DNA from: Candidatus Eiseniibacteriota bacterium
GTDB lineage: Bacteria; Eisenbacteria; RBG-16-71-46; CAIMUX01
Assembly (NCBI GenBank): GCA_046327845.1
Contig: JAXLXQ010000018.1
Span: forward strand, 1,085-65,084
DNA length: 64,000 nucleotides
Direction: 5' to 3'
This document shows positions 21,185 through 38,642 of the stretch, piece by piece. Position numbers and translations under genes: made by a program. The notes beneath the pieces are model-generated. The model saw nothing but the letters and a program-made list of their open reading frames with translations. It was not told where the DNA came from and made no database searches. Each line of letters starts with the position of its first letter. Positions within the stretch are counted from its first letter, which is position 1.

Positions 21185-22422
21185 AACCGCGCGTGACCTT
21201 CTGGCGAGTCGTGCTCCTCTTGGTACTGACGGCAGGACTGGTGGCGACCGTCGCCCGCTTCGTGCGGGGCTTAGGCGGATCGACCCACCTGTCCGACGCG
21301 TTCCCTTGGGGCCTCTGGATCGGCTTCGACATCCTGTGCGGAGTGGGCCTCGCGGCCGGCGGCTTCACGCTGACCGCCGCGGTGCACATCTTCAACATCA
21401 AGAAGTTCAAGCCGGTCGTGCGGCCCGCGATCTTGACCGCGTTTCTCGGCTACCTGCTCGTGGTCTTCGCGCTGATCTTCGACTTGGGCAAGCCGTGGAA
21501 TATCTGGCACCCGCTCGTGATGTGGAATCCGCACTCGGTGATGTTCGAGGTCGCCTGGTGCGTGACGCTCTACACCATGGTGCTGGGGCTCGAGTTCAGC
21601 CCGATGCTGTGGGAGAAGCTCGGCTGGACAAAGGTGAAGAAGGTAGTGAGCAGCGTGACGCCGGTGCTCGTGATCTTCGGCGTGATGCTCTCGACCCTCC
21701 ACCAGTCCTCGCTCGGCAGCCTGTTTCTGATCGCGCCGGGCAAGCTCCACCCGCTCTGGTACAGCCCGTGGCTGCCGGTCTTCTTCTTCCTCTCGTCGAT
21801 CGCGGTCGGCTGCGCGATGGTGATCTTCGAGTCGTTCCTCAGTCGCCGCGCCTTTGGGCACTCGGTCGAGTTCCCCCTGCTGGTCGACCTCGGACGCGTG
21901 GCGTTGATCGTGTTGATCCTCTACTCGGAGCTGCGCTTCTTGGACCTCAAGGCGCGCGGCGCGCTCTCCTACGTCAACTTCCGCACGGAGGAGGGGAGCC
22001 TCTTCCTCGCGGAGATCTTCCTGGGCGTGGCGGTGCCGGTGTTCCTGCTCGCGATCCCGAAGATCCGGCAGCGGCAGGGCGGGCTCTTCGCCGCGGCCAC
22101 ATTCATCGTACTTGGATTCGTTCTCAACCGACTGAACGTGGGCCTCACCGGTCTTCAAGCGTCGTCGGGTGTCCGATATATACCTTCGTGGATGGAGATC
22201 GCGGTGACCACGTCGCTGGTCGGCGCAGGATTCGCGATCTTCGCGCTTGCCGTTCGGCACTTGCCGGTGTTTGCTGAAGAAGTCCACAGCGCCCGTCCTC
22301 CCCGGCCAATGAAGGCGGACGCTTCATCCGGAGTCGTGCCATGCGATCGCGCGCGCTGGGTTTGGCCGGGAAGCTCGCCGGAGGCCTCAGCCTCGGCCTC
22401 CTTCTCTCGTTCGGCGGACTAG
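21181..22422 (+). CDS. Integral membrane quinone-interacting subunit (NrfD/HybB/PsrC family)
   Basis: ATGA overlap with the preceding gene. FPWGLWIGFDILCGVGLAAGG and about 10 predicted TM helices, typical of HybB/NrfD. Confidence 0.8.
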   Translation: MKPRVTFWRVVLLLVLTAGLVATVARFVRGLGGSTHLSDAFPWGLWIGFDILCGVGLAAGGFTLTAAVHIFNIKKFKPVVRPAILTAFLGYLLVVFALIFDLGKPWNIWHPLVMWNPHSVMFEVAWCVTLYTMVLGLEFSPMLWEKLGWTKVKKVVSSVTPVLVIFGVMLSTLHQSSLGSLFLIAPGKLHPLWYSPWLPVFFFLSSIAVGCAMVIFESFLSRRAFGHSVEFPLLVDLGRVALIVLILYSELRFLDLKARGALSYVNFRTEEGSLFLAEIFLGVAVPVFLLAIPKIRQRQGGLFAAATFIVLGFVLNRLNVGLTGLQASSGVRYIPSWMEIAVTTSLVGAGFAIFALAVRHLPVFAEEVHSARPPRPMKADASSGVVPCDRARWVWPGSSPEASASASFSRSAD

Positions 22423-24013
22423 GCTTAGTCCACCTTCGCATTCAACGATCGCACCTCGAAGCAAGCATCCTTCAAAACGCGGCGCGGATCAGCGACATCA
22501 TTCGCCGATCCGCGCACGACTTGATGCTGCGGAACGATGTTGAAGGCTTATACAGGATGATTCGGACGATCGGGACCGAACCCGGTCTGTCCAAGATCCG
22601 AGTCTTCAATGCCGCCGGCCGGGTCTCCTACTCGACCGACTCGCTCGAAGTCGGCGTGGTGGTCGATCGGAAGGCTGAGGCCTGCATCGGTTGCCACGAG
22701 AACGACGGGCCGAGCAGCACGCTGCCGGAGACGGCACGCTCGCGATACCTTCGCGCGGCGGACGGCAGCCGAGTTCTCGCCCTCACCCAACCGATCCGAA
22801 ACGAGCCGGCCTGCTCCGAGGCTGACTGCCACGCCCACCCGCGCGAACGCCAGATCCTGGGCGTGCTCGACACCCAGCTTTCCCTCGCCGACCTCGATCG
22901 CCAGGCCCGCGCCATGACCCGCGCGCTCGCGGTGTGGCTGTCGATCTCGCTTGCGCTGGTCATCGTGCTGTCGATCGCGTTCCTCGAGGGGTTGGTGCTC
23001 CGGCCAATCGGCAAGCTGCGCGCCATGACCAACCGCATCGCCCGCGGAGATCTCGATCACGAAATCAAGGTCGAAACGCAGGATGAGCTGGGCGAGCTGG
23101 CCGGCGCGTTCAATCGCATGACCGGCGAACTCAAGGAGGCGCGTCACGAGTTGACCGAGTGGGGTCGTCGACTGGAGCTGCGCGTCGAGGAAAAGACGAA
23201 GGAGCTGGAGCGCGCGCACGAGCACGTCATTCGAGTCGAACGGATGGCGTCGATCGGCAAGCTGGCGGCGATCGTCGCGCACGAGATCAACAATCCGCTC
23301 GCGGGCATTCGGACCTACGCGCTCCTGCTGCAGCGTCGCGCCCAGCGAGAGGCCGCCGCGCGCGCTGCCGAGGAGACTGCAGGCGCCGGCGCCACCGCCG
23401 CGCCCGCAAACGGCGGCGATGCTCCCGACATCCTCGGCACCATCGCGAGCGAGGCCGGGCGTCTCGGCGACATCGTCCGGAATCTCCTGCAGTTCTCTCG
23501 GCCCTCGCCGCTCAAGGTGGCGCCGCAGACCGCCGCCGAGATCGCGCAACGCGCCGTGCGCTTGGTCCAGCACCAGATTGACCTGCAGAACGTGGAGCTG
23601 GTCCTGGATGTCGATCCCACCGTCGGCGAAATCCAGTGCGACGGCGCGCAGATCCAACAGGCCTTGATCGCGCTCCTCATGAATGCGCTGGAGGCGATGC
23701 GAGAAGGCGGTCGACTCGAACTCACCGTCCGATCGGCCGGCGACCAGGTCGAGATCCGAGTCGGCGACAACGGCATCGGCATGGATCCGGGCACGCTGGC
23801 CCACGTCTACGAACCGTTCTTCACCACCAAGGAGTCAACCTCGGCCAATGGACTCGGATTGGCCGTGGTCTACGGCATCGTCACGCGCCATCACGGAACG
23901 ATCGCGATCGATTCGGCGCCGATGCGAGGCACCACCGTCACCATGCTGCTGCCTCGCAGCGTGCAAGAGGCGAAGGACGCGCCGAGCGCGAGCCCTGAGA
24001 AGGAGGAACCGAA

Positions 24014-24038
<25 letters not shown>
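22341..24038 (+). CDS. Sensor histidine kinase with periplasmic c-type heme sensor domain, HAMP, HisKA and HATPase
   Basis: Between TM1 and TM2: CIGCH (CxxCH) and CSEADCH (Cx4CH). HAMP: DELGELAGAFNRM. H-box: AHEINNPLAGI. G-boxes: DNGIGM and GLGLAVVYG. The 5' end overlaps the previous ORF by 82 nt, so the start is uncertain. Confidence 0.8.
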
Positions 24039-25500
<1,462 letters not shown>

Positions 25501-26084: not shown

Positions 26085-27515
26085 TCACCGACGCCGCGTC
26101 ATCACCAGGAGAAAGCCAAAGTCTCGATCGACCGCGAACTCACTCCGGATGCGCTGCCTCACTGAAGCGGGCAAGAGTCGAAAGTGGTCATCGACAATCA
26201 CCGCACGAACGCGAGGGTCATCTAGCACCCCGAGTAGTTCGCTCTCGAGTTTCCCTGGTGGCAGGAGTCGGATCACATCGGAGTTGAGGAAGAAGTAGCG
26301 ATAAGCCGGCAGGCGCGTGAGGTACAGGCCGGACCAGAGGTCGAGCACGCGGTCCTCGGGGCGCGTCGCGCGGAGCACCGTGCGCAGCACCTCGACTTCG
26401 ACTCCCTGGCGCTGCACCGGAAGCAGCGCGACGCAGGGCGGCACGAGCAGCGCCAGGGGGAGCGCGACCCGGAAGGCGACGCCGCGGAACGACGCCCCGA
26501 TCGCAAGCACGACGCGGTGGCTGGCCCATGCAGCGGTGATGGCGAGCGCCGGCAGCACGAAGAGGAAGTATTGCCGCAGCGGCGCGTTCATCAGGAAGAA
26601 GCCGGCCAGCGCCGCGAGCAAGCTGCACGGGATCATCGTTCGCGGCGGACACTCGGGGAGCACTTCGCGTGAGCGCAGCAGTTGCCCGACGCCGATCGCG
26701 CCCAGCACCCAGGTCACAGGGTTGGCCTTCAGGATCGCCCCGCCCAAGAGCCCCCACCGCGTGCCCCACGGATCGTCGATCGTCATGTGGGCCGACGTTC
26801 CGATGCAGTCGTGCCAGAAGCCGCGAAGCGCCCCGGTCGAGGCGAGGACCGCGAGGATCATGGACGAGACGATGGCCCCGCCCAGGAGAGTCCACACGAT
26901 CGGCGCGGCCGCAGCGAAGCTCTTGGAGTCGCGCGCTCGATCGGAGAGAAGTCTGCCGAAGAGCGCACCGACAGCGGCGAAGAGCGCCTTGGGCGTGAAG
27001 AAGAGTGCGAGTCCGAAGGCAACGCCGGCTGCGCTCCACGCCACGCGCCCGCGTCGCGCAAGCAACCAGATCCCGAGCAGCAGGAAGAAGGCTCCGGGCA
27101 CGTCGGGCCGCACCTCCACTCCCTTCTCGAAGAAGTAGGCGGAGGTGAGGAGGAGGAGAGGCGCCAACAGCGCGCCGGTCACTCCGGCCAATCGCCTGGT
27201 CACGAGCGCGGTGATGAGGAGGATGCCCAGGCACGGCGCGAGCATCGCCCAGCGCGCCGCGCGGATGAGCGGCTCGGCGCCGAGCCCGCTTCGCGCGAGC
27301 GGCTGGAGCGACCAGTAGAGGAGCGGCGGGTGATTCTCGAAGAGCGAACCGTAGAGCGACTCGCCGTGCGCGACGGCGTAGGCCGCATTCAGGTGCTCCA
27401 ACTCATCGACATCGAGGAAGCGAGTCGGCGTGACCGAGATCCGAAAGGCGAGCGCGACCAGCAGAAAGGCTCCAAGAACCCACAACCAAGCGCGCTCGAG
27501 GCGGGTCACGTTCAT
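26085..27515 (-). CDS. GT-C fold glycosyltransferase (ArnT/PMT-like, polyprenyl-phosphate-sugar dependent), ~476 aa, polytopic
   Basis: Trimmed to MNVTRLERAWLWVLGAFLLV, which gives an ATGA overlap with the GT2 stop. DVDELEH acidic motif in the first periplasmic loop. About 11 TM helices followed by a soluble C-terminal domain. Confidence 0.7.
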   Translation of the reverse strand: MNVTRLERAWLWVLGAFLLVALAFRISVTPTRFLDVDELEHLNAAYAVAHGESLYGSLFENHPPLLYWSLQPLARSGLGAEPLIRAARWAMLAPCLGILLITALVTRRLAGVTGALLAPLLLLTSAYFFEKGVEVRPDVPGAFFLLLGIWLLARRGRVAWSAAGVAFGLALFFTPKALFAAVGALFGRLLSDRARDSKSFAAAAPIVWTLLGGAIVSSMILAVLASTGALRGFWHDCIGTSAHMTIDDPWGTRWGLLGGAILKANPVTWVLGAIGVGQLLRSREVLPECPPRTMIPCSLLAALAGFFLMNAPLRQYFLFVLPALAITAAWASHRVVLAIGASFRGVAFRVALPLALLVPPCVALLPVQRQGVEVEVLRTVLRATRPEDRVLDLWSGLYLTRLPAYRYFFLNSDVIRLLPPGKLESELLGVLDDPRVRAVIVDDHFRLLPASVRQRIRSEFAVDRDFGFLLVMTRRR

Positions 27516-28315
27516 CCTTGCGGCATATCCGACCGCCGCGCCGGGTCGCGCTCCACCACCTCGAGCCTTCGTCCGTCGGCGCGCAGAAAACGTGGCGTGT
27601 AGATGCCGAGGCGATCGAGGAAACCGCCCCACGATGCGCCGAGCACGCCCAATCCATAGCGCACGCTCCGCGCGAAGTTGATGCTCGAGGCTTCCGGGAA
27701 GTAGCGCGTCGGACAGGTGATCTCGCCGATGGTGTAGCCGCGGCGAATGATCTGCACCAGCATCTGGTTGTCGAAGACGAAGTCATCGGAGTTCTCGAGC
27801 AGCGGCAGGCTCTCGAGCACGCGCCGATGAAAGGCGCGAAAGCCGGTGTGGTACTCCGACAGCTTGTACTTCACGAGGAGGTTCTCGATCAGGGTGAGCG
27901 CGCGGTTCGAAACGTACTTGTACAACGGCATGCCGCCGGACAGCGCGCCCACGCCCAGGATCCTCGAACCGAGCACGACGTCGAACTGCCCTGTCGCGAT
28001 GAGCGACGCCATCGCGGTGACCAATCGCGGTGAGTATTGATAGTCCGGGTGGACCATCACCACGATCTCTTCGCCGCCGCGGAGCGCCTCGGCGTAGCAG
28101 GTCTTCTGGTTGCCGCCATAGCCGCGATTCACGGGGTGCAGAAAGGTGTCGATTCCCAACCGCCGCGCCACCTCGACGGTGGCATCGGCGCTCTGATCGT
28201 CGACCAGGATGACGCGATCGACGACGTCGTGCGGCAGCTCGCGATAGGTCTGCTCGAGCGTCTTCGCCGCGTTGTACGCCGGCATGACGACGCATACTCG
28301 GCAACCGTCGATCAC
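27512..28315 (-). CDS. GT2 family glycosyltransferase (polyprenyl-phosphate sugar synthase, DPM1/ArnC/GtrB-like)
   Basis: VVMPAYNAAKTL, ILVDDQSAD, NRGYGGNQK, HPDYQY. GTG start at 28315 chosen because GGGGGA lies 3 nt upstream and a 12-bp hairpin occupies 28401-28429. The track ORF extends to 28432. Confidence 0.8.
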   Translation of the reverse strand: MIDGCRVCVVMPAYNAAKTLEQTYRELPHDVVDRVILVDDQSADATVEVARRLGIDTFLHPVNRGYGGNQKTCYAEALRGGEEIVVMVHPDYQYSPRLVTAMASLIATGQFDVVLGSRILGVGALSGGMPLYKYVSNRALTLIENLLVKYKLSEYHTGFRAFHRRVLESLPLLENSDDFVFDNQMLVQIIRRGYTIGEITCPTRYFPEASSINFARSVRYGLGVLGASWGGFLDRLGIYTPRFLRADGRRLEVVERDPARRSDMPQG

Positions 28316-28400
28316 ACTTCCCCCTTGCGTAGGCGCCCGCGGTCGCCGCCCGCTCCTCCGCGGTGGCCCCGGTCGCGCGGAGGACATCGTAACAGGCGAA

Positions 28401-28429
28401 GCCCCGCCCGGGGTCATCCCGGGCGGGGC
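28401..28429 (-). terminator. Strong GC hairpin (12-bp stem, 5-nt loop) between the 42-heme cytochrome gene and the glycosyltransferase genes
   Basis: GCCCCGCCCGGG-GTCAT-CCCGGGCGGGGC. Starts about 40 nt after the cytochrome stop. No clear U-tract, so it may be a terminator, an attenuator or an mRNA-stabilising end. Confidence 0.45.
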
Positions 28430-28469
28430 CACTCTTCGGGCGCCCGCGTGCCTCCGACCTAGCGTGCCG

Positions 28470-31400
28470 CTAGTGGGCCGCCGTGTGGCACTGGATGCAC
28501 AGATCGCGACGTCGATCGGCTTGCAGCTGGAAGTCGAACTGCGAGGCGTGCGGGTTGTGGCACGACAGGCAGGTCAACGGGCCGTCGTTCCGAGGATCCT
28601 TGTACTGCGCGCCCAGGGGGTGCGTGTGCTTGGTTCCGTCGGCGTGGCAGGTCTGGCACAGCTCGTCGACGTTCGCCTTCAAGAGCTTCCCTTGATCGGC
28701 GCCGTGCGGCTGATGGCAGGAGCTACAGTCCGGCGTCTTGTTCAGGTGGCTCGACTTCCCCTGGAACATCGCCGGGTCATGGCAATTGCCGCAGACCGCG
28801 AGCTGTGAGCTGCTCTTCATCAGCGCCTTGCCGCTGCCGGCGTGCGGCGAGTGGCAGTTGAGGCACGCCTCGTCCTCGGTCATGGCCGGGTGCGTCACCG
28901 ACTTCGCCATCTCCTCCTTGATCTTGGGATGGCAGGTGGTGCACGCCTCCGGCCCCGTCGCCTTTCGCCCGCCGTTCGGGGTGTGGCAGGCCGCGCAGTT
29001 CCCCTGCGCGAAGGGCGGGTGAGTCGAGGCCTGCATGAGGTTGAGCTGCTTCGACGCGTGCGGGTCATGGCAGCTCAGACACGCGTCGGCCTCAAGCGCG
29101 TAGTTCTTGTGCTTCGCCTTGAGCGCGGGCGTGATCTGATGGCACGACTGGCAAAGCTCGCCCATCGGCTTCAAGAGTAGCGACTGCTCGCCGGAGCCGT
29201 GCGGGTTGTGGCAAGCCTGGCACTTGTCCTTCGCCACCGGGTCGTGCAGCTTCGCGCCCTCGAACGAGGCGACCAGATCCTTGTGACACTCACCGCAGAG
29301 CGCCTTCCCCTCCGCCTTCAGCAGCTTGGGATGGGTCGAGCGATGCGGATCGTGGCAGTCGCCGCACTTCCCTTCGGCCACCGGCGGATGGTGGACGCTC
29401 GCCCCCTCGGCGATGTCGGAGTGGCACTCCTTGCACAGATCCGGCTGCGCCTTCTGCAGCAGCTTGTCACGCTCGGAGGCGTGCGGGTTGTGGCAGATCA
29501 CGCACTCGCCGTCGGCAACCGGCGGATGCACCGACTCGCCGGCCGCGGCCGGCGCGGTGATGTCGGGATGGCAGGTGGCGCACTTCTCCGTCATCGAGCC
29601 GGTGAGCGGGCCCGGAGTGCCTTCGCCGTGACAGACCGCGCACTCGCCCGAATCGAATGGCGGGTGCCGCTTGGATGCGAGCAAGCCCTTCGACTCGGAC
29701 CCGTGCGGCTGATGGCAGCCGACGCAGTTGAGCTTCGCCAGCTCGGCTCCCTTGTGCTTCGCCTGGAGCGCAGGGTCGCTGGTGTCGTGACACTGCGCGC
29801 AGAGTTCGGTGGCAGCCGCGATCAGCATGCCGGGCGAGTCGCTGCCGTGGGCAACGTGGCAGGCAGTGCAGGCGCCGTCCCGTGCCGGCGGGTGCGCGGT
29901 GGGCAGGTTGATCGCCTTGGCGATGTCGGCGTGGCAGCTCAAGCAGGTCGCGCGCTCCGACGCGATCAGGAGGTGCGGCTCCTTGGATCCATGTCCACGG
30001 TGGCAGGAGTCGCAGCGCCCTTCCTTTACCGGCTCGTGCGGATTGGTCTTGGCCGCCGCCTGCTCCAGCACGTCGCCGTGGCACTCGCCGCACACTTCCT
30101 TCGCCTCGGCGCGCAGCCCGTTTTCCTTCTTACCAGAGTGCGGCGCGTGGCAGATCAGGCAGTCCTGATCGACGAAGCCTTGGTGCACGACCGGCAGGTT
30201 GCCCTGCGCGACCACGCCAGAGTGGCAACCCTTGCACAGGTCGGGGCTCTGCGCCTTCAGGAGGTGCGCCTGATCTCCGCCGTGCACCGTGTGGCAGGAG
30301 CCGCAATCGCCGCCGGCGAAGGGCGGGTGCGCGTACTCGTCGCCGCGAGCCGGTTCGGCATTCTCGTGACACTGCCCGCAGAGCTTTGCCTCGGGCGCGG
30401 CCAGCAGGTGGGGTTCATTGGAGAGGTGCGGGGCGTGGCAGTCGGTGCAGGCCATCGACTCGAGCGCGGGGTGCTTGACCGTGGCGTTGGTCGCGAGTGA
30501 GTCGATGTCGGCGTGGCACTGCTTGCAGGTTTCGCCGTTCTCCGCGCGAAGGAGACCACCGTGATCCGAGCCGTGGGGGTCGTGGCACTTCCCGCATTGA
30601 TCATCGTTGAACGGCGCGTGCACGGAGGCCACCGGGCTGGTCGGAATGAGCCCGTCGTGGCATTCGTTGCAAAGCTCCTTCACTTCCTTCTTGAGCACCG
30701 CCTCGGTCGTGCCCTTGTGCGGGTCGTGACAGGTGAGGCACTCCCCTTCGGCAGCAGGGGGATGCGGATGGGCGCGATCGCCGAGCTTCTCCAACTCGCC
30801 GTGACAGGTGGTGCAGAGTTCCGGCACCTGCGCCACGAGCGCTCCGCCGGTCGGGGTGGTGTGACAGGCCTCGCAGTTGCCCGTCCTGTACGGTTCGTGA
30901 CCGCCGGTCACGAGAAGCTGCTTCTCCCTGCTGCCGTGCGGCTCGTGGCAGGCGCCGCAGGGCGCTTGCTTCCACCCGTCGCCCGGGTGTTTGGCGGCGA
31001 GGGCGTCGCGTGACTTGCCGTGGCAGCTCAGGCAGAGCGCTTCCTCGTCCTGGTTGAGCAGCTTGGCCGTGGTGTTGCCGTGCACGGTGTGGCATGTGCC
31101 GCACTTCTCGCTCGAGGCCGGCGGATGCCCGCCCGCCGCGATCTTCTCTTTCACGTCCTCATGACAGGCAAGGCAGGAGAGATCGGCGTCGTAGCGACGG
31201 AGCAAGCCGTCGTCGGTCGAATTGTGAGGCGAGTGACAGACGAGGCAGTCGCCCCGCTCGGGCACGGGGTGGCCGGACTTCATCGCGCCGGTCGCGCTCT
31301 GCTCCGCGTGACAGCCGATGCAGAGGTCGGGCGGATTGGCCAGGAGAACGAGCTTTTGATCGAAGCCGTGACGCTTGTGACAGGCCTCGCACTTTCCGTC

Positions 31401-31574
31401 CGCCACCGGCTTGTGCTCGGTACCGGCCTTGTAGCGCTCGACCGCGTCAGCGTGGCAGTCGACGCACTCGCGCCCGCCCTTCGACTTCGACGCGGAAAGG
31501 CTGGACGCCGCCGGCCAGAGCGCGGCGATCGAGACGAGAGCCGCGATCGAGAACAGCTTCGCGGCGCGTTTCAT
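28470..31574 (-). CDS. Giant multiheme c-type cytochrome, 42 CxxCH motifs, built from ~21 tandem diheme (paired-CxxCH) repeats; Sec signal peptide
   Basis: I counted 42 CxxCH motifs in 1034 aa (one per ~25 aa). Recurring unit: HPP-x-G-x-C-xx-CH-x-PH-x(5-8)-LL-x(6-10)-LC-xx-CH. N-terminus: MKRAAKLFSIAALVSIAALWPAASS. Confidence 0.95.
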   Translation of the reverse strand: MKRAAKLFSIAALVSIAALWPAASSLSASKSKGGRECVDCHADAVERYKAGTEHKPVADGKCEACHKRHGFDQKLVLLANPPDLCIGCHAEQSATGAMKSGHPVPERGDCLVCHSPHNSTDDGLLRRYDADLSCLACHEDVKEKIAAGGHPPASSEKCGTCHTVHGNTTAKLLNQDEEALCLSCHGKSRDALAAKHPGDGWKQAPCGACHEPHGSREKQLLVTGGHEPYRTGNCEACHTTPTGGALVAQVPELCTTCHGELEKLGDRAHPHPPAAEGECLTCHDPHKGTTEAVLKKEVKELCNECHDGLIPTSPVASVHAPFNDDQCGKCHDPHGSDHGGLLRAENGETCKQCHADIDSLATNATVKHPALESMACTDCHAPHLSNEPHLLAAPEAKLCGQCHENAEPARGDEYAHPPFAGGDCGSCHTVHGGDQAHLLKAQSPDLCKGCHSGVVAQGNLPVVHQGFVDQDCLICHAPHSGKKENGLRAEAKEVCGECHGDVLEQAAAKTNPHEPVKEGRCDSCHRGHGSKEPHLLIASERATCLSCHADIAKAINLPTAHPPARDGACTACHVAHGSDSPGMLIAAATELCAQCHDTSDPALQAKHKGAELAKLNCVGCHQPHGSESKGLLASKRHPPFDSGECAVCHGEGTPGPLTGSMTEKCATCHPDITAPAAAGESVHPPVADGECVICHNPHASERDKLLQKAQPDLCKECHSDIAEGASVHHPPVAEGKCGDCHDPHRSTHPKLLKAEGKALCGECHKDLVASFEGAKLHDPVAKDKCQACHNPHGSGEQSLLLKPMGELCQSCHQITPALKAKHKNYALEADACLSCHDPHASKQLNLMQASTHPPFAQGNCAACHTPNGGRKATGPEACTTCHPKIKEEMAKSVTHPAMTEDEACLNCHSPHAGSGKALMKSSSQLAVCGNCHDPAMFQGKSSHLNKTPDCSSCHQPHGADQGKLLKANVDELCQTCHADGTKHTHPLGAQYKDPRNDGPLTCLSCHNPHASQFDFQLQADRRRDLCIQCHTAAH

Positions 31575-32065
31575 GGGGTGGTCCTCCCTATCCCTGGAGT
31601 CGCTGTCGTCGGGGCCTTGCCCGGCGCCCAGATCAGCGAGTCGACTTGAAACGAGAGCTCGGACTTGGGCGCGAAGTGCGGCACGTCGGTGAAGAAGGCC
31701 CAGCTGGCCTCGACGCGTTTGCTCCCCTCGTACACTTCCACCTTGAGCGCCGGATTGCGCATCTCCTTCGACCGCGAGATGACCTTCTTCGTGCGGTCGT
31801 CGATCGCGAAGTCAGGGACGAAGTCGACGATCTTGCCGTAGAAGTCGGTGTCGCCGATCTGAAACTTCTCACCGGGCACTGCGCGCTCGATCTCCACGAA
31901 GTCGGGGTGCATGCGGTGCGTGACCCGGAGCTGCACCGCCTGGAGCGAGGAATCGCACGAGGAAATGACGAAACCTAGGAGGGCCGCGGCGAGCAAGCGC
32001 ACGCGCGGGTTCCACCGCTCGAGTCTGGCGTCGAGTCGATGGCGGAAGCCGGGGAACTTCATCAT
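31571..32065 (-). CDS. Small lipoprotein (164 aa), unknown function
   Basis: Lipobox LLGFVISSC. ATGA overlaps with both flanking genes. Confidence 0.7.
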   Translation of the reverse strand: MMKFPGFRHRLDARLERWNPRVRLLAAALLGFVISSCDSSLQAVQLRVTHRMHPDFVEIERAVPGEKFQIGDTDFYGKIVDFVPDFAIDDRTKKVISRSKEMRNPALKVEVYEGSKRVEASWAFFTDVPHFAPKSELSFQVDSLIWAPGKAPTTATPGIGRTTP

Positions 32066-32721
32066 CGATCGTTCTCCAACGAGGCTCGGCGCGCGGGGTC
32101 CAGGGGAGGACCGACGCGACAGACGTTGCGCATCGACTGCGCCAGCTGGTGCGAGATGACCGCTGCCAGTCGGTCCGCGGTGCGGATGCGTCCGATGCCG
32201 AAGAAGGTCTCGCCGTCGTCTCCCTCGCGCGAGGCCGATCCAGCCCAGATCACGAGGCCGTTCGAAGCGTCGATCAGGCGCAGGGTGATCGCCACCACCG
32301 GCAGACCACGCGGCCGGTCCTTACCCTCCGCGTAGTCGATGCCACGCCCACCAGGGAGGTAGTCGGCGCCGGCATGGGAGGCGAGCGATTCCATCTGCTC
32401 GGCCGACATCCGGTCGGGGTCGAGGATGCGAAGCTGACGGAGGGCGCCGGACACCAGGCCCGGATCCTGGATGCGGAAGTGATCCAGCGCGCCCAATTCG
32501 ACCAGGAGCTTCTGCACGAAAACATTCCCCGCCGCCTCGGACGAGGTCAGATTGCCGAGCGGCAAGAACGCGACGGTGGCGCCCGGTCGAACCCCTGATT
32601 CGGCGACCGTGAACTGCTGCAAGCCCGGGGCGCATCCGACGAGGGTCACGAGCAGGAGCAGCGACAGGGCGGTCGCGGCCACCGACATCCGTCGTGAGTG
32701 CGAAGGGATCACGCGCTGCAT
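32062..32721 (-). CDS. Lipoprotein with LpoB/PelC/TolB-N-like signature
   Basis: Trimmed to MQRVIPSHSRRMSVAATALSLLLLVTLVGC (lipobox) with GAGAGG SD. ATVAFLPLGNLTSSEAAGNVFVQKLLVELG matches the (V/I)A(V/I)LPF-x-N pattern of this lipoprotein fold class. Confidence 0.65.
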   Translation of the reverse strand: MQRVIPSHSRRMSVAATALSLLLLVTLVGCAPGLQQFTVAESGVRPGATVAFLPLGNLTSSEAAGNVFVQKLLVELGALDHFRIQDPGLVSGALRQLRILDPDRMSAEQMESLASHAGADYLPGGRGIDYAEGKDRPRGLPVVAITLRLIDASNGLVIWAGSASREGDDGETFFGIGRIRTADRLAAVISHQLAQSMRNVCRVGPPLDPARRASLENDR

Positions 32722-32731
32722 CTTGCGCCTC

Positions 32732-33349
32732 TCAGTCCGGCAGGCGCCCGACCAGCTCATCCGCCACCGACTCGGTCAGCTCGGAGAGGGTCCGCGCGCC
32801 GCCCAGGTTCAAGATCGGTATCGCGGCGCCACCGCGTCGCGTCACGCTGGTCGACCAGACGATCGTGCCCGTCTTGACGTCGACCAATCGAACCTCGACC
32901 GACACCAGCGGCCGTCCGGTGGCCGATCCCTCGAGGAAGTCGCGCACCGTCCCCTCGAAGATGCCCTGCACGCCGGTCGAATCGCCGAGGGCCGAGAGGT
33001 TGGTGATCGGCAGCCCGATCGGCGGCGCGGTGTTGGCGCCGACCGAGATCGAGTAGGCCGAGAGGAACTGCCCCGGTTCAGCCACGGCAAACTTGCGCGA
33101 GAAGATGAGGTGCGAGGTGAAGGCGGAGGACATCTTGTCCCCGGCCAATCGATCGTTGGTCAGCGATGCGAACGGAAGGACGCCGACGCGCTCGTAATAG
33201 CCCCAGTCGGCCTCCTCGTGGAGGAAGCTGTTGCTGCCGCCACACCCCATGGCCAGCAGCAGGAGGATCGCACCGATCAGCAATCGCACTCGCACGACTT
33301 CCCCTCCCCTCGTTCCTCCTGCCCAACTACCCGGTCGCGATTGGCTCAC
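32732..33349 (-). CDS. Lipoprotein, distant paralog of the previous one (LpoB/PelC/TolB-N-like)
   Basis: Lipobox LLLLAMGC. RVGVLPFASLTNDRLAGDKMSSAFTSHL. Starts 4 nt after the barrel gene stop. Confidence 0.65.
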   Translation of the reverse strand: MSQSRPGSWAGGTRGGEVVRVRLLIGAILLLLAMGCGGSNSFLHEEADWGYYERVGVLPFASLTNDRLAGDKMSSAFTSHLIFSRKFAVAEPGQFLSAYSISVGANTAPPIGLPITNLSALGDSTGVQGIFEGTVRDFLEGSATGRPLVSVEVRLVDVKTGTIVWSTSVTRRGGAAIPILNLGGARTLSELTESVADELVGRLPD

Positions 33350-33353
33350 GAAG

Positions 33354-34994
33354 TCAGAAGCGCTGGAGCAGCGACGCGCTCCACAGGCTCGACCCCGAAC
33401 CGACCGCGGGCAGCGCTCGCGTGTGCGACGCCGTCATCTCCCACAGCCGGGAGACGCGAACACGAAGACTCCCGCCGCTGGTGATGCCGAAGGTCCGGCC
33501 CCTTCGCGCATCCTGATCGGAGGCGCGGACGGCGCTCCAGCTCCACGCGGCATCTCCCCAGCGCCACGGCGCCGACACGCTGCCCGAGACGCCGTACTTC
33601 GATCCGGCCGCCTGCTCGCGCAGTTGGTGTCCGTCGTAGCGCATCGTGATCGAACCACCGCGGGCCAAACTCAGAATCGTCTCCACCGTGTAGTAGACGC
33701 GATCCATGTGGCGCAGCGAGATCTTCTGACCTAAGCGATCGGCTTGGGTGCTGGCCTGAACTTGTACACCGTCCACCGGCCGGAGGCGAAGCTCGATGTT
33801 TTGGGCCACCCGGTAGCGCTGCGCGGCGGGTACGCCCTCCAACGCCTGACCGGTCCAGTCGATGGCAAAGATCGCGCCGGGGCGGAGCGGACCATCGAAG
33901 CGCAGGCCCAACTGATCTGAAGGAGTGCTGGCGCCGGTCTGCGCCAGGACCCAGTTGCGGGCCGCGGTCGCGGTCGCGGTCATCTCCGGCAGGACGTGGT
34001 GGCGGGTGACCAGCTGCGCGCGCATGTAGTCGTTGATCGACTCCGCGCCGGAGACGAGCTGCCGTTGATAGGTGCGAATCACCGCCACGTTCGAACCCTG
34101 CCAAGGCTCGATCGAGGTGTTGACGCTGCCGTCCAGATTGCGGTCGTTGCGATCGCGCCTGGCGCGTTCCCGGTAGCGCAGCGTCTCCCAGTTCAGGTCG
34201 CCGCCCAGGCTCCAGACGCGGGTCGGGCGGAGGGTGACGCGCGACTCCAAGTCATCTCGGGTGTTTCGCCGGGTGGAGCCGTCCCCGATTCGATCACGCC
34301 CCTGCACGTGCCGCGCGCCGAAGCCGCTCGTCATCCAGCTGCCGGTGGTGTGCTGCGCCTCCGCGCCGAATTGGGTCTCGCGCGTGCGACGACGCACCGC
34401 GGCCGCGCCCGGAATGGGGATCCCACCGATCGTGCGCTGACTGTTCGAGTCCTGCCAACGGTCGGAATAGTCGAAGTCGATTCCGCGGAGCCTCTGCGCC
34501 ACGGCGAGCCGTTGCTCGTCGACCTGCGTGTTGTTGGGATTGCCGATGCTGTTCGAACCGCCGTAGCGGCGTTCCCTCGAGGTCGACTCGAAGCGCAGGT
34601 TGGGCAGGCCTTCCTTGTGGAGCTGCCCGCCCCACGAGGTCTCATTGAGCTTCCACGTGGGCGGTTGATTGATCGAGACGCGCTGATCCGGGCGGTTGCG
34701 GAAGTAGAGGTCGAGCGGCGTGCTTCGAAACTGCAGGTCGCCGCGTCCGCGGAAGGTGTGGACACGCTGCTCGAAATCTTCTTCACGCTGCAACTGCCCG
34801 AGGAAAACGAGGGACCGGTCTAGGCCAAGGTGAAAGAGGGTGCGGCACTCTAGCACTTGATCGGACGTGCGGAATCTCCCGTTTGCTAGGCGGGAGGAGA
34901 GGTAGGTCGAATGCAGGCGATAGTCGACCTCGGCCTGGGCCGGTCCAACGAAACTCAAGACGGCAATGGCCACGAGACCGCTCCGGGCGCGCAT
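33354..34994 (-). CDS. Outer-membrane beta-barrel protein (546 aa)
   Basis: Signal peptide MRARSGLVAIAVLSFVGPAQA. Alternating amphipathic strand pattern rich in R, D, Y, G and T. C-terminal SLWSASLLQRF with terminal Phe (OMP signature). Its start overlaps the stop of the upstream cytochrome gene (TAATG). Confidence 0.8.
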   Translation of the reverse strand: MRARSGLVAIAVLSFVGPAQAEVDYRLHSTYLSSRLANGRFRTSDQVLECRTLFHLGLDRSLVFLGQLQREEDFEQRVHTFRGRGDLQFRSTPLDLYFRNRPDQRVSINQPPTWKLNETSWGGQLHKEGLPNLRFESTSRERRYGGSNSIGNPNNTQVDEQRLAVAQRLRGIDFDYSDRWQDSNSQRTIGGIPIPGAAAVRRRTRETQFGAEAQHTTGSWMTSGFGARHVQGRDRIGDGSTRRNTRDDLESRVTLRPTRVWSLGGDLNWETLRYRERARRDRNDRNLDGSVNTSIEPWQGSNVAVIRTYQRQLVSGAESINDYMRAQLVTRHHVLPEMTATATAARNWVLAQTGASTPSDQLGLRFDGPLRPGAIFAIDWTGQALEGVPAAQRYRVAQNIELRLRPVDGVQVQASTQADRLGQKISLRHMDRVYYTVETILSLARGGSITMRYDGHQLREQAAGSKYGVSGSVSAPWRWGDAAWSWSAVRASDQDARRGRTFGITSGGSLRVRVSRLWEMTASHTRALPAVGSGSSLWSASLLQRF

Positions 34995-36103
34995 TAGTCC
35001 TCCCCCTCACCTGGGTGGTGGACGTTCTCGCTGGTCGCGGAGCTGTAGTCGGAACCGTGGCAACCGAAGCATCCCCGGACGTCGGTGGCCGCGTGGCCGC
35101 CCTCGTCCGGGAGCGTGTTCATCACGATGCCGTCGACCGTGATGGAGCCCGGCACGCCGTTCGCCGGGATGTGGCAGCCAAGGCAGAACGCCCGGTTGGC
35201 CGCCGGATTGGTTTGGGTATCGACGAGCCCACGCCAGCCGGGTCGCTCGTCGCTGATCAAGAAGGCGTTCGGCGAAACGCCGTCGTTCCCGCGCGAACCG
35301 TGCGGGTTGTGGCACTCGTAGCAGGGGAGCGGATCGCCCGCCCGCATGTAGCTGGGCCAGGAGATCGCGATCTCGGGATTGCGGCGGATCTGGTGGCCGG
35401 CGCGCTGGTCATTGTTGATCGCGGGGTCGTAGTAGTCGGCGATGAGGCGATTCGGCGCATCCATGCCGACGGGACCCGAGGGACCGTGGCAGTCGAGGCA
35501 GGCCGCCATCCGAACCGCCGCGCGACCGGGCCAGCTTCCGCCCCAGGGTTGGTAGACGGCCTTCAAAAGATCGTGCGGGCCCGCCCCTTCGTGGGGATCG
35601 TGGCAGTTGCGGCAAAGGCCGCTGCCGTCGCCGTCTTCGATCGGCATGTCGGGGTCGTTGCGGTGCGGCGAGTAGTAGTGGCCGTTCGCGGCGACCCGCG
35701 TGTCTTCGAAGACCAGCATCCCCGGCCAGCGTCGTCTGAGCAGCACGCCCGGGGTGCGTTGGCCGCCGCTGTTGGCTTCGAAGTAACCAGGAGCGTCGGC
35801 GGTCTCGGGGAGGCGATCACTCTCGATCGCGGGATAACCCGGCGGGCGCTGATCATGGCAGCCACCGATTCCGCCGGCCCCGTAGCAAAGTTGATTGTCG
35901 TTCGGAGCGAAGAGGATCTTCGGCTCGGGCGTCATCCCCTCGTTGTCGTGAAGCGGATGGCACTGCGAGCACTCGCCGATGGTGGGTGGATCGGTCGGGA
36001 TGCGGTTGACGCCGTAGATCGGGTCATAGTGCGGATTGGCGCTCGGTGTCTGCGCCAGGCTGAGCAAGGTCATGAGAACGATCGGTCCGCCGGGTACGAA
36101 CAT
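34994..36103 (-). CDS. Multiheme c-type cytochrome: 6 CxxCH plus one possible Cx8CH site
   Basis: CSQCH, CRNCH, CLDCH, CYECH, CLGCH, CFGCH and CYGAGGIGGCH. Trimmed to MFVPGGPIVLMTLLSLAQTPSA (signal) with GGTGAGGAGA SD. The longer track ORF would run through a hairpin. Confidence 0.85.
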   Translation of the reverse strand: MFVPGGPIVLMTLLSLAQTPSANPHYDPIYGVNRIPTDPPTIGECSQCHPLHDNEGMTPEPKILFAPNDNQLCYGAGGIGGCHDQRPPGYPAIESDRLPETADAPGYFEANSGGQRTPGVLLRRRWPGMLVFEDTRVAANGHYYSPHRNDPDMPIEDGDGSGLCRNCHDPHEGAGPHDLLKAVYQPWGGSWPGRAAVRMAACLDCHGPSGPVGMDAPNRLIADYYDPAINNDQRAGHQIRRNPEIAISWPSYMRAGDPLPCYECHNPHGSRGNDGVSPNAFLISDERPGWRGLVDTQTNPAANRAFCLGCHIPANGVPGSITVDGIVMNTLPDEGGHAATDVRGCFGCHGSDYSSATSENVHHPGEGED

Positions 36104-36135
36104 CGTCCTTGTCTCCTCACCGCCCCTAGTGACTT

Positions 36136-36167
36136 GGGGCACGGCTGCGCGATGCGCCCCGTGCCCC
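36136..36167 (-). other. GC-rich hairpin in the OmcS-like / heptaheme intergenic region
   Basis: GGGGCACGG...CCGTGCCCC with an inner GCGC-GAT-GCGC extension. Lies about 35 nt upstream of the next start codon. Confidence 0.4.
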
Positions 36168-36276: not shown

Positions 36277-37281
36277 CTAGCCCTGAATGTGGCACTGCTT
36301 GCAGAGATCCTTCACCGCCACGCCATCGTCACCTTCCTCGGACACGGTGCCCGTGCCCTTCATGAAGATGAGGCCGAAGGCGTGCTTGTTGCCGTGCGCC
36401 TTGTGGCAGCTCATGCAGGACGGGGTCACGCCGGACGGCGGGGGATCCCACACGCCGGTCGGGCTCATCACGTGCACGCGGTTGGTGCGGCTGGTGAAGG
36501 TGGTGAGGCTGGAGTGCCCACCGGTCAGGCCGCCGATGTTGGCGTCAGCGTTCGGGTGGCGGAGCCACTCGGCGCCAGTCGCGTCACCGCCGACTTCCGG
36601 GCCGCCCTTGGCGCCGTGGAAGTTGGTGTGGCAGCCCTTGCAGAACATCGCGTACTTCGACGCGGTCTGATCCGGCTCGTTCCAGTCGACGTTGTTGTAG
36701 GCGTAGTGCGAGGTCATCGGGGTGGTGGCGCGCTCGAAGATGTCCTTGGTCAGGTCGTTCGTGCCGATCGCGTAGGTCACCGTCGAGTTCGACGGGGCCG
36801 TACCGGTCTTCACCCGAAGGTTACGATAGGCGCCGCCGGCACCGTGCTGATGGTGGCAGTCGGTGCAGCTCAGGCCGTTCGTGTTCGACCAGGTGCCGCC
36901 AGGAGCCACGTCGGTCGCGTCCAGGGTGTGGCCGGTCGCGTGGTAGTAGGGCGCCGAGCCGTTGCGGTTCAGACCACCAGCCTCGCGAACGTAGCTGTTG
37001 GAGTTCGCGCCGAGGACGTCCGGTGCGAACGAGGTGTTGTTGTGGCAGGTCAGGCACAGGTCGTTGACGTCATTACGCAGCAACGCCTCGTACGGACCAC
37101 TGGCGCCGAGCGGCGCGTAGATCCCGGTGCCGTCCTCGTTGTAGCCGTGGGTCTGGCTATAGTGCATGACGTGGCAGTCGGCGCAAACTAGCGTCGTCCC
37201 GGTGTGAAAGTCCCCGGCCATGGCAAGGGGGACTCCGATCAGAAGCGCGAATGCTCCGAGAAGAAGTCCGAGCCGTTTCAT
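36277..37281 (-). CDS. OmcS-like hexaheme c-type cytochrome (candidate filament-forming subunit)
   Basis: Six CxxCH: CADCH, CLTCH, CTDCH, CKGCH, CMSCH, CKQCH. Signal MKRLGLLLGAFALLIGVPLAMA. The mature end GDFHTGTTLVCADCHVMH resembles Geobacter OmcS FHSGGVAECEGCHTMH (from memory). FCKGCHTNFHG...WLRHP resembles WCANCHT...LRHP. The final LCKQCH resembles LCNKCH. Confidence 0.75.
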   Translation of the reverse strand: MKRLGLLLGAFALLIGVPLAMAGDFHTGTTLVCADCHVMHYSQTHGYNEDGTGIYAPLGASGPYEALLRNDVNDLCLTCHNNTSFAPDVLGANSNSYVREAGGLNRNGSAPYYHATGHTLDATDVAPGGTWSNTNGLSCTDCHHQHGAGGAYRNLRVKTGTAPSNSTVTYAIGTNDLTKDIFERATTPMTSHYAYNNVDWNEPDQTASKYAMFCKGCHTNFHGAKGGPEVGGDATGAEWLRHPNADANIGGLTGGHSSLTTFTSRTNRVHVMSPTGVWDPPPSGVTPSCMSCHKAHGNKHAFGLIFMKGTGTVSEEGDDGVAVKDLCKQCHIQG

Positions 37282-37325
37282 GTCAATCCTCACTTTCGGT
37301 ACGTCTTGGGGCGCCGAAACTACCG

Positions 37326-38441
37326 CTACCGCGAAGCCCCCGGCGCCAGGATGTCAGTCCGTCCACCCAACCCATCCACCCCAACTCCCACCGAGTCCCG
37401 ACCCGTGGGGGTCGTAGCCTCGGCTGAGATCTCAGGCGCGCTCATCTGGAAAGCAGAGAGGCGCGCGCCCAACCTCTCCAGCACGAACAGGCGATCCTTT
37501 CCGTCCGTGGCCATCGCCGCGGGATAGAGAAGATCGCCCAGCTCCCTGCCTGCCGCCCCAACCATTCCGACGTAGGTCCCGTCCAGAGCGAAGACCTTAA
37601 TCGTCTGGCGGATCGCATCCGCCACCCACATCCGCCCGGAGGCGGCCACCACTGCGGTAGGAAGAGAGAAGTTCTCGTTGCCAACATCGTGCGTTCCCAG
37701 CGCGAGCAGAAGCTCGTGCTCGGAATCGTAGACACGGACCGGCGGCTCGGCCGTCGCGTCCGTGATGTACAAGCGACCCGCGGGGTCCATGTACAAACTG
37801 GTGATCGCGCCGAAGGGCTTCGCCCCGGCGTCGCGGCCATCCACCGTCCAGAGGATCGTGTCGTCGCTCGCCACGCAGACGATCACGGCGTCATGCGAGC
37901 CGACCGCGACGATGAGGTGATCTTCGGGATCGAGCGCTAATGACACCGGTCGGAAGTCGCCGGGAATCGCGCTGGAGGAGTTCGGGTCGGGCGCAGCCCA
38001 TCCCTTGAACTGCGCCGGGTCGATCTGGCGGACGGGCTGGCCGAGGAGGTCCATCACCTCGACCCGGTCCGAGAGGGCGTCGATCAAGTAGAGGAGACCA
38101 TCCCGCGTCACCGCGAGATTCTTCGGCTCGCCCGGAATCGGACCGCGCGGGCTATCCGCGAAGACTTGGTAGCTACGAATCTGCATCCCCGACCCGTCGA
38201 GGGCGCGGATGCGGTGGTTGCCGGTGTCGGCGACCCAAAGAAGGTCCCCCTGAGCGTCGTAAGCCAGGCCGAGAGGGCGGTTGAAGTCGACCGCGGCGGA
38301 AGTCCTGTCGACCATCCAAAGAGGGGTCGCCTGCACAGCCCCCTCGGCTTGGCTTGGCGACGCCCAGAGGGATGCGGCCAGGACACCCGAGATCCAGCCC
38401 GTCACGATCCACCCACCGGACCGCTGCGGAAGGCGCCCCAT
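37326..38441 (-). CDS. NHL-repeat six-bladed beta-propeller protein, secreted
   Basis: Repeats such as LLWVADTGNHRIRALD, LLYLIDALSDRVEVMD, RLYITDATAEPPVRVYD, RMWVADAIRQTIKVFA and RLFVLERLGARLSAFQ. Start at MGRLPQRSGGWIVTGWISGVLAASLWASPSQA (GGAGG SD). The track ORF extends to 38525. Confidence 0.8.
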   Translation of the reverse strand: MGRLPQRSGGWIVTGWISGVLAASLWASPSQAEGAVQATPLWMVDRTSAAVDFNRPLGLAYDAQGDLLWVADTGNHRIRALDGSGMQIRSYQVFADSPRGPIPGEPKNLAVTRDGLLYLIDALSDRVEVMDLLGQPVRQIDPAQFKGWAAPDPNSSSAIPGDFRPVSLALDPEDHLIVAVGSHDAVIVCVASDDTILWTVDGRDAGAKPFGAITSLYMDPAGRLYITDATAEPPVRVYDSEHELLLALGTHDVGNENFSLPTAVVAASGRMWVADAIRQTIKVFALDGTYVGMVGAAGRELGDLLYPAAMATDGKDRLFVLERLGARLSAFQMSAPEISAEATTPTGRDSVGVGVDGLGGRTDILAPGASR

Positions 38442-38642
38442 GGTGGCCTCCGTCGCGATCCCCGTTTCGTGAATGGACTGGTTCATCTTGGTGTCCCTGG
38501 TTATGTGCCAGTTTTCACTAGTCACCTCGCGTGCCGAATTGGTCCAGAATTGGCCCTCAAACCAGCTGGGAGCTAATTGCCTGCGCAGAGGAAAGTTACG
38601 GAGAGAAAATCAGCAGCCCGGTCAAGTCGTAGCGTGGATGAG

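Follow-up and report, generated by a model that had tools for sequence, protein, structure and literature searches.

A 42-heme cytochrome c of a Candidatus Eiseniibacteriota bacterium: natural fusion of OscI- and OscJ-like cytochromes in an osc-type gene cluster

The 42-heme gene and its homologues

A 64,000-nucleotide (nt) stretch of contig JAXLXQ010000018.1 from a Candidatus Eiseniibacteriota bacterium (assembly GCA_046327845.1), referred to here as the window, carries a gene for a 1034-amino-acid (aa) cytochrome c with 42 heme-binding motifs. This gene is the last of a conserved eight-gene cluster, and its product resembles OscI and OscJ, two cytochromes from the osc operon of Geobacter, which accompanies the nanowire cytochrome OmcS. 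The gene and the features assigned to it were as follows.

28470..31574 (-): gene for the 1034-aa, 42-heme cytochrome c (fusion of OscI-like and OscJ-like parts), based on 42 CxxCH motifs, the PF09699 match, homologues and the ratio of nonsynonymous to synonymous substitution rates (dN/dS)
31491..31574 (-): predicted Sec signal peptide of the signal peptidase I (SPI) type, about aa 1-28, sequence MKRAAKLFSIAALVSIAALWPAASSLSA, modeled by AlphaFold as a helix over residues 2-28
29625..31490 (-): OscI-like module, hemes 1-26, aa about 29-650, based on the match to OscI and on free-standing 26-heme proteins
29583..29624 (-): fusion linker, aa 651-664, GEGTPGPLTGSMTEK, placed by the end of the 26-heme gene and the start of the 16-heme gene in loci L011, L012 and L013
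28470..29582 (-): OscJ-like module, hemes 27-42, aa 665-1034, based on matches to 16-heme proteins and to Geobacter OscJ
28401..28429 (-): terminator-like hairpin, 41 nt past the stop codon, based on folding energy compared with shuffled sequences

The open reading frame (ORF) at 28470-31574(-) contained exactly 42 CxxCH motifs, and a motif scan of all 1034 aa detected no CxxxCH, CxxxxCH or CxxCK motif. All 84 Cys residues were located within CxxCH motifs, and the protein had a total of 92 His residues. Spacing between motifs ranged from 18 to 29 aa, with a predominant alternation of 25 and 23 that generates a 48-aa diheme unit with the consensus H-P-P-x5-CxxCH-x-PH ... LL ... L-CxxCH. A first-pass annotation of the window had already given the length, the motif count and a repeat of about 48 aa, all of which agreed with the present analysis; its estimate of about 21 diheme repeats was nearly right, as the actual layout had 19 regular diheme units and four hemes outside them (numbers 9, 26, 35 and 42). 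Hemes 9, 26 and 35 formed irregular 'triheme' junctions, with a spacing of 28 followed by one of 18 to 20, and heme 42 was terminal. A conserved C-terminal motif, HPxGxxxxDPR...CxSCH, was present in the OscJ-like module. In its mature form the protein had one heme for every 24 aa, and its holo mass was predicted to be about 132 kDa. Inspection of the sequence detected neither a lipobox Cys before heme 1 nor a C-terminal sorting domain.

Profile searches placed the protein among cytochromes with paired motifs. Pfam PF09699 (Paired_CXXCH_1), a scan that had been proposed earlier as a check, matched 22 stretches with an E value of 8e-207 and a score of 669 bits against a cutoff of 20.6. TIGR01905 gave a score of 606 bits, which is above its curated cutoff, and the TIGR03508 profile (DmsE/MtrA family) matched 9 stretches.

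The start of the 42-heme gene overlapped the stop codon of an upstream 164-aa ORF (ATGA), confirming the coupling to an upstream lipoprotein gene that had been noted previously; this ORF has the lipobox VISSC. The downstream hairpin, previously described as having 12 bp, was also detected. It had a 12- to 13-bp G+C stem and a 5-nt loop with a folding energy of -33.8 kcal/mol (z = -4.34), which was equaled by none of 200 shuffled sequences, and it lacked a clear U-tract. The longest ORF for a glycosyltransferase of family GT2 (window 27512-28432, minus strand) crosses this hairpin, and translation of this gene probably begins further downstream, near MPAYNAAK.

A word-indexed search detected 61 full-length relatives of 986 to 1090 aa with identities of 33% to 39% (median, 36%). 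These were derived from GN15/Zixibacteria, the FCB group, Krumholzibacteria, Latescibacterota and Gemmatimonadaceae and from a Geopsychrobacteraceae metagenome-assembled genome (MAG). Exactly 42 CxxCH motifs were present in 59 of the 61 homologues, and in a joint alignment each of the 42 motifs shared its column in at least 98% of the sequences. Outside the motifs, 40 His residues were conserved at a level of at least 90% and three more at 66% to 79%; bis-His ligation at every heme would need 42. Conservation of nonheme residues was 0.50 to 0.53 at the termini compared to 0.42 in the middle, and the three junctions also somewhat exceeded the middle. Sampling of 61 genomes from the phylum of the window detected a match in 25, of which about 19 were full length with 37% to 41% identity, and the spread of the 42-heme protein was patchy (19 of 40 genera). 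With Eisenbacteria included, the fused protein is found in many uncultured lineages. No searchable paper was found that mentions a 42-heme cytochrome.

Close orthologues were examined in two further assemblies. The cluster was also present in a Logan assembly derived independently from a different sequencing run (L010), in which the 1034-aa orthologue aligned without gaps and had 98.5% aa identity and 94.2% nt identity to the window gene. Comparison of the two genes detected 161 synonymous and 18 nonsynonymous differences (dN/dS = 0.028), and the gene is under purifying selection. A second, collinear orthologue with about 71% identity and two frameshifts was present in a Candidatus Eisenbacteria MAG (L009; GCA_016712505.1). 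Gene calling divided this orthologue (L009:13708-16651) into three genes in different frames, with products of 160, 398 and 440 aa; the frame breaks are likely to be long-read indel errors or to mark a pseudogene. Overall, these analyses indicated that the 42-heme gene is real and strongly conserved.

Relation to 26-heme and 16-heme cytochromes

An exhaustive search of representatives clustered at 50% identity detected two classes of shorter proteins. The first class consisted of proteins of about 650 aa with 26 CxxCH motifs that matched residues 1 to 652 of the query, the 42-heme protein, in one stretch, and the second consisted of proteins of about 400 aa with 16 CxxCH motifs that matched residues 655 to 1031 in one stretch. 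Their spacing patterns mirrored those of query hemes 1 to 26 and 27 to 42, respectively, irregular junctions included. In BLAST comparisons, 26-heme proteins aligned best with residues 1 to 652 (301 to 343 bits, compared to 217 to 249 bits out of register) and 16-heme proteins with residues 652 to 1032. In three independent loci (L011, L012 and L013), the gene for the 26-heme protein was followed directly by a gene for the 16-heme protein with its own signal peptide, and in L012 and L013 the start of the second gene overlapped the stop of the first. A global alignment of the query to a concatenation of the L012 26-heme protein and the mature 16-heme protein had all 42 motifs in register, with an identity (36%) equal to that with fused orthologues. 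The segment GEGTPGPLTGSMTEK (aa 651-664) occupied the position at which split systems have a stop codon and the signal peptide of the next gene. The register was taken from the single-stretch phmmer and BLAST matches and from the global concatenation alignment; a joint MAFFT alignment of the 26- and 42-heme classes was rejected, as the 26 hemes were scattered over the 42 by repeat-induced misalignment. These comparisons indicated that the 42-heme protein is, as judged by its sequence, a fusion of a 26-heme and a 16-heme cytochrome that are encoded by adjacent genes elsewhere. The first-pass annotation had missed both the fusion and the membership in a cluster of the OmcS-companion type.

A tree of the 16-heme module was utilized to examine the history of the fusion. 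Fused and split states were strongly clustered and neither formed a single clade, with 5 changes of state compared to 23 when the labels were shuffled. Well-supported branches forced at least two changes, and hence fusion or fission has occurred more than once; a single origin of the fusion was ruled out by this tree. Two types of cluster were apparent among the loci. Split loci (26 plus 16 hemes; L011, L013 and L014, the last being a Geobacter locus) encoded a SurA-like peptidylprolyl isomerase (PPIase), and fused loci (42 hemes; L003 to L010) encoded an extra hexaheme cytochrome and a small coupled protein. The barrel had about 700 aa in the split type and about 545 aa in the fused type.

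In Geobacter sulfurreducens, GSU2495 is OscI, a 26-heme periplasmic cytochrome of roughly 70 kDa, and GSU2494 is OscJ. Both are encoded in an eight-gene block (GSU2500-2493) that lies downstream of omcS, omcT and the OmcS-like GSU2501 (oscC) and has been linked to maturation and secretion of the OmcS nanowire (PMC2996986, PMC12977616, PMC13194489). OscI and OscJ are both listed as periplasmic (PMC13194489). The reference for this operon was a G. sulfurreducens-type genome in which a product matched the N-terminal 54 residues of OmcS (6EF8) at 100% identity; the Geopsychrobacteraceae genome that holds L001 had no match to the OmcS N-terminus. The gene order in the reference was OscC (437-aa hexaheme cytochrome), OscD (YncE-like propeller), OscE (729 aa, ending in Phe), OscF (LpoB/GNA1162-like lipoprotein), OscG (392-aa lipoprotein), OscH (SurA-like PPIase), OscI (660 aa, 26 hemes), OscJ (10 plus 5 motifs with a frame break) and OscK (NHL protein). 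The frame of oscJ in this reference (L014, G096:C1:2742189-2743529) appears to be broken after about codon 290, and its motifs are divided between two frames (10 and 5). For evolved strains, an oscJ frameshift at position 868 has been listed (PMC13194489).

Collinear tblastn matches to both Geobacter cytochromes were detected. Residues 2 to 652 of the query matched OscI in register with 32% identity (E = 2e-89), and residues 682 to 1030 matched OscJ with 37% to 40% identity (E = 2e-54). The heme-spacing pattern of OscI was almost identical to that of the query. The two cytochromes are separate polypeptides in Geobacter and one fused 42-heme polypeptide in the window. The new element of the present analysis is that OscI and OscJ are naturally fused in a cluster of the osc type outside Geobacter.

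Gene cluster and comparison with the Geobacter osc operon

The other seven genes of the cluster lie upstream of the 42-heme gene on the same strand.

31571..32065 (-): 164-aa small secreted protein or lipoprotein, ATGA-coupled, found upstream of the fused gene in other loci; no known domain
32062..32760 (-): lipoprotein (LpoB-like), OscG counterpart, with lipobox VTLVGC, a weak match to Pfam LpoB and a tblastn match to OscG (E = 3e-17)
32732..33349 (-): lipoprotein (LpoB/CsgG-like), OscF counterpart, with lipobox LLAMGC and a tblastn match to OscF (E = 4e-17)
33354..34994 (-): predicted 546-aa outer-membrane beta-barrel, positional counterpart of OscE, based on a signal peptide, a terminal Phe and an AlphaFold model
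34994..36142 (-): 382-aa secreted hexaheme cytochrome, 47-54% identical across phyla
36277..37293 (-): 338-aa OmcS-like hexaheme cytochrome (OscC/OmcS family), based on a profile of 8 orthologues compared with OmcS 6EF8
37326..38525 (-): 399-aa NHL-repeat beta-propeller (OscK-like), first gene of the cluster, based on Pfam NHL (E = 2e-16)

Synteny of the cluster was detected in 8 loci from several phyla, including Latescibacterota, Gemmatimonadaceae, Krumholzibacteria and Eisenbacteria. The 164-aa protein was encoded directly upstream of the fused gene in 7 of the 8 other loci (L003, L004 and L006 to L010). Members of this family have about 150 to 190 aa and share the motifs HR-MHP, NPA-K-V, WAF and PHF, and no counterpart was detected in the Geobacter osc region. 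A lipobox was present only in the Eisenbacteria members; as it is not conserved outside this group, an interpretation of the +2 Asp of the lipoprotein as an inner-membrane retention signal was dropped. OscF itself matches the GNA1162-like and LpoB families. The NHL gene was conserved in L003 and in L005 to L009, and Geobacter OscK is also an NHL protein.

The AlphaFold model of the 546-aa barrel had a predicted local distance difference test (pLDDT) score of 83.4 and about 28 strands. The best TM-score was 0.52, to MtrB (6r2q_B), and ushers and LptD matched about as well. No match to the barrel was detected in Pfam or NCBIfam, MtrB_PioB of Pfam included. The pairing of a decaheme MtrA with a barrel of the MtrB_PioB family, by which an MtrAB-type conduit is recognized, was not found in the window pair, in which the cytochrome has 42 hemes.

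The two hexaheme cytochromes differed in their relation to solved structures. A phmmer search of the Protein Data Bank (PDB) with the single 338-aa sequence had no match, whereas the 8-orthologue profile of this family matched OmcS (6EF8) with an E value of 2e-10, aligning from the mature N-terminus of OmcS. For the 382-aa hexaheme protein, no solved relative was detected in the PDB with either a single sequence or a profile, and no counterpart was found in the Geobacter osc operon. Identity across phyla was 47% to 54% for this hexaheme protein, much higher than the values of about 36% for the 42-heme protein and about 18% for the barrel.

The window cluster shares with the osc operon an OmcS-like hexaheme cytochrome, a large barrel, LpoB-like lipoproteins and an NHL protein. 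It differs in lacking the SurA-like PPIase (OscH) and the YncE-like propeller (OscD), in having the conserved 382-aa hexaheme cytochrome and the 164-aa coupled protein as extra genes, in the size of the barrel (546 aa compared to 729 aa in Geobacter) and in gene order. With a single 42-heme ORF and without the PPIase and the YncE-like propeller, the window cluster is best classed, on these sequence grounds, as a variant of the osc operon and not as a canonical member.

Genes for a sensor histidine kinase with a CxxCH motif in its periplasmic domain and for a sigma-54-type response regulator adjoin the cluster (window 22341-25500, plus strand). A distant multiheme gene in a Desulfobacterales locus (L002) is also bordered by homologues of this kinase and regulator.

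Fold and proposed role of the 42-heme protein

The fold of the 42-heme protein was examined with AlphaFold2, using an alignment of 60 sequences. The model had a mean pLDDT of 84 and a predicted template modeling (pTM) score of 0.57 and contained hardly any structure beyond short helices. MtrA was the sole significant match in the PDB, both by sequence (6R2Q_A; phmmer E = 6e-17) and by fold (6r2q_A; Foldseek E = 2e-6, target TM-score of 0.42, 28% identity). MtrA, the periplasm-facing component of the MtrCAB complex, has ten bis-His hemes in an 80-Å chain with its C-terminus directed outward (PMC7198977). Paired-CXXCH units are common to both proteins, and the bis-His ligation, very low content of secondary structure and linear heme chain described for MtrA (PMC7198977) are features to which the 42-heme protein can be likened. 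The two differ in heme number (10 versus 42) and in the adjoining barrel, which in the window is not a match to Pfam MtrB_PioB. The 42-heme protein was assigned, from these relationships in sequence and fold, to the paired-CXXCH (MtrA/DmsE/NrfB-like) class of multiheme cytochromes c. Scaling from the length of MtrA gave an estimate of about 35 to 36 nm for the 42-heme chain if it is straight. The earlier suggestion of a single-molecule wire of tens of nanometers is plausible at this length, with the linear shape as its conditional part.

We propose, with moderate confidence, that the most likely role of the protein is that of a periplasmic hard-wired heme chain that feeds an OmcS-type outer cytochrome, with OscI and OscJ acting as one wire. 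The protein would be Sec exported as an MtrA-like chain of about 132 kDa with covalent, mostly bis-His hemes and would stay in the periplasm. Electrons would pass from quinol oxidation at the inner membrane through the 42-heme chain to a complex of the barrel and lipoproteins and to the OmcS-type outer cytochrome. In split systems, OscI and OscJ would be arranged end to end as one 42-heme wire, a prediction that follows from their natural fusion by a Rosetta-stone argument. A periplasmic wire is suggested by the presence of an SPI signal peptide together with the lack of a lipobox and of a sorting domain, by the MtrA-like fold, by the strict retention of 42 hemes in both fused and split forms and by the tight linkage of the cluster. 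We infer the heme ligation, the linear shape, the periplasmic location, the partners and the direction of electron flow from these features.

Several observations weigh against this role. The pTM score of the AlphaFold2 model was only 0.57, and the three triheme junctions may be bends in a chain whose straight shape is conditional. No inner-membrane partner was conserved in synteny among the loci compared, and the extra conservation of the termini was modest. In Geobacter, charging of OmcS filaments has been assigned to the small diffusible cytochromes PpcA-E (PMC10954620). The osc genes have been proposed to function in the folding, secretion and morphology of OmcS, and no role is stated for OscI or OscJ in that study (PMC13194489). 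Furthermore, the barrel may be a secretion pore and not a sheath for the 42-heme cytochrome.

A stronger version of the proposal, which we consider possible but doubtful, is that the chain is a fixed-length 'cable' across the periplasm by which a quinol oxidase is hard-wired to the base of an OmcS-type filament, either as the fused protein or as OscI plus OscJ. In that case, crossing of the envelope would be independent of diffusing carriers such as PpcA-E, and the distance to be bridged across the envelope would explain why the count is held at 42 hemes. The route of electrons over the 20 to 30 nm of the periplasm to cytochrome nanowires is still debated, and the Geobacter model relies on diffusing triheme carriers (PMC10954620). 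The fused protein offers a hard-wired path as a concrete and testable alternative to such carriers. As a wire encoded by a single gene, the protein is also a candidate part for bioelectronics and could serve as a metagenome marker for electron-transfer machinery of the OmcS type.

A periplasmic electron store, or capacitor, in which the hemes mainly buffer electrons when there is no external acceptor and do not form a fixed bridge, was considered improbable. Geobacter periplasmic and outer cytochromes act as capacitors, and storage would be consistent with the very high heme density, the predicted periplasmic location and the lack of a conserved inner-membrane partner gene nearby. However, storage leaves unexplained why exactly 42 hemes are kept, whether in one polypeptide or as 26 plus 16, and why the gene is tied to a cluster with a barrel, lipoproteins and an OmcS-like cytochrome. 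Storage and wire roles are not exclusive.

It also seems unlikely that the cytochrome is exported through the 546-aa barrel to function extracellularly, either as a monomeric wire or as a mediator that is loosely bound. The resemblance of the barrel model to secretion ushers and LptD as well as to MtrB would permit such a route, and OscE, OscF and OscG have been proposed as a secretion apparatus; OscI and OscJ, however, are listed as periplasmic in the same study (PMC13194489). The highest-heme cytochromes of the Desulfuromonadia are mostly predicted to be extracellular (PMC11492766), but the 42-heme protein has an MtrA-like fold, and MtrA faces the periplasm (PMC7198977). The lack of a lipobox and of a C-terminal sorting domain also argues against export; a neighboring S8 protease has a FlgD_ig-type C-terminal domain. 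A further parallel is provided by Desulfovibrio ferrophilus, in which large multiheme cytochromes and NHL propellers, thought to act at the outer membrane, are encoded by DFE_0448-0451 and DFE_0461-0465 (PMC5815863, PMC8322314). DFE_0465, from this possibly related NHL-containing cluster, was enriched in the extracellular proteome (PMC8322314). Fe(III) oxide reduction was unimpaired after deletion of genes from these clusters (PMC9769857).

For the periplasmic chain proposed here, an assignment to the c7-type polymers of triheme domains, such as the Geobacter 'nanowire' cytochromes GSU1996 and GSU0592, is highly improbable. The first-pass annotation had drawn this likeness, and Pfam Cytochrome_C7 did match 10 stretches of the protein (E = 1e-48). 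This match was far weaker than that to Paired_CXXCH_1, the period was a 48-aa diheme and not a triheme domain of about 73 aa, and the sole solved relative was MtrA. A genuine cytochrome with a 73-aa triheme period from the same genome was only 22% to 24% identical to the 42-heme protein. The likeness was not upheld, as the protein has MtrA/DmsE-type dihemes and its Geobacter counterparts are OscI plus OscJ. Both types are long, peptide-minimized chains of repeated multiheme units that have been proposed as protein 'wires'.

The age and reliability of the repeat number were examined at the DNA level. Tandem Repeats Finder detected no tandem repeats within the 42-heme gene, the longest exact internal repeat was 20 nt and pairwise identity among the 19 regular units was 19% to 48% for protein and 36% to 64% for DNA. 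Repetitive genes are in principle prone to misassembly, and no specific support for this was found here; an assembly artefact or a recent, unstable tandem expansion, which the first-pass annotation had named as scenarios to be checked, is virtually excluded by the divergence of the units, the ungapped 1034-aa product of the independent L010 assembly and the 59 homologues with 42 motifs in register, and the 42-heme layout is ancient and fixed.

The protein had also been described as among the highest heme counts for a single polypeptide, which is an overstatement. Desulfuromonadia cytochromes have up to 75 motifs (PMC11492766), and distant database relatives included P0151 (3592 aa, 131 CxxCH), P0243 (3274 aa, 129 CxxCH) and P0126 (1629 aa, 52 CxxCH). 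The number of 42 hemes belongs to a long tail and is not a record. The genome of the window itself (4.05 Mb, 57% complete) contained cytochrome c maturation genes and 24 ORFs with at least three CxxCH motifs. The largest count cited for it was that of a 1692-aa ORF outside the window (C16:68403-73481, minus strand) with 59 CxxCH motifs, a 73-aa triheme period and spacings of 32, 16 and 25, which is of the true c7-polymer type. As its repeat is so regular, this ORF could be affected by assembly, and no obvious signal peptide was present at its longest start. An ORF with 15 motifs lies just upstream (C16:73957-75363, minus strand), and these ORFs may be parts of a single gene that is interrupted by a frame break.

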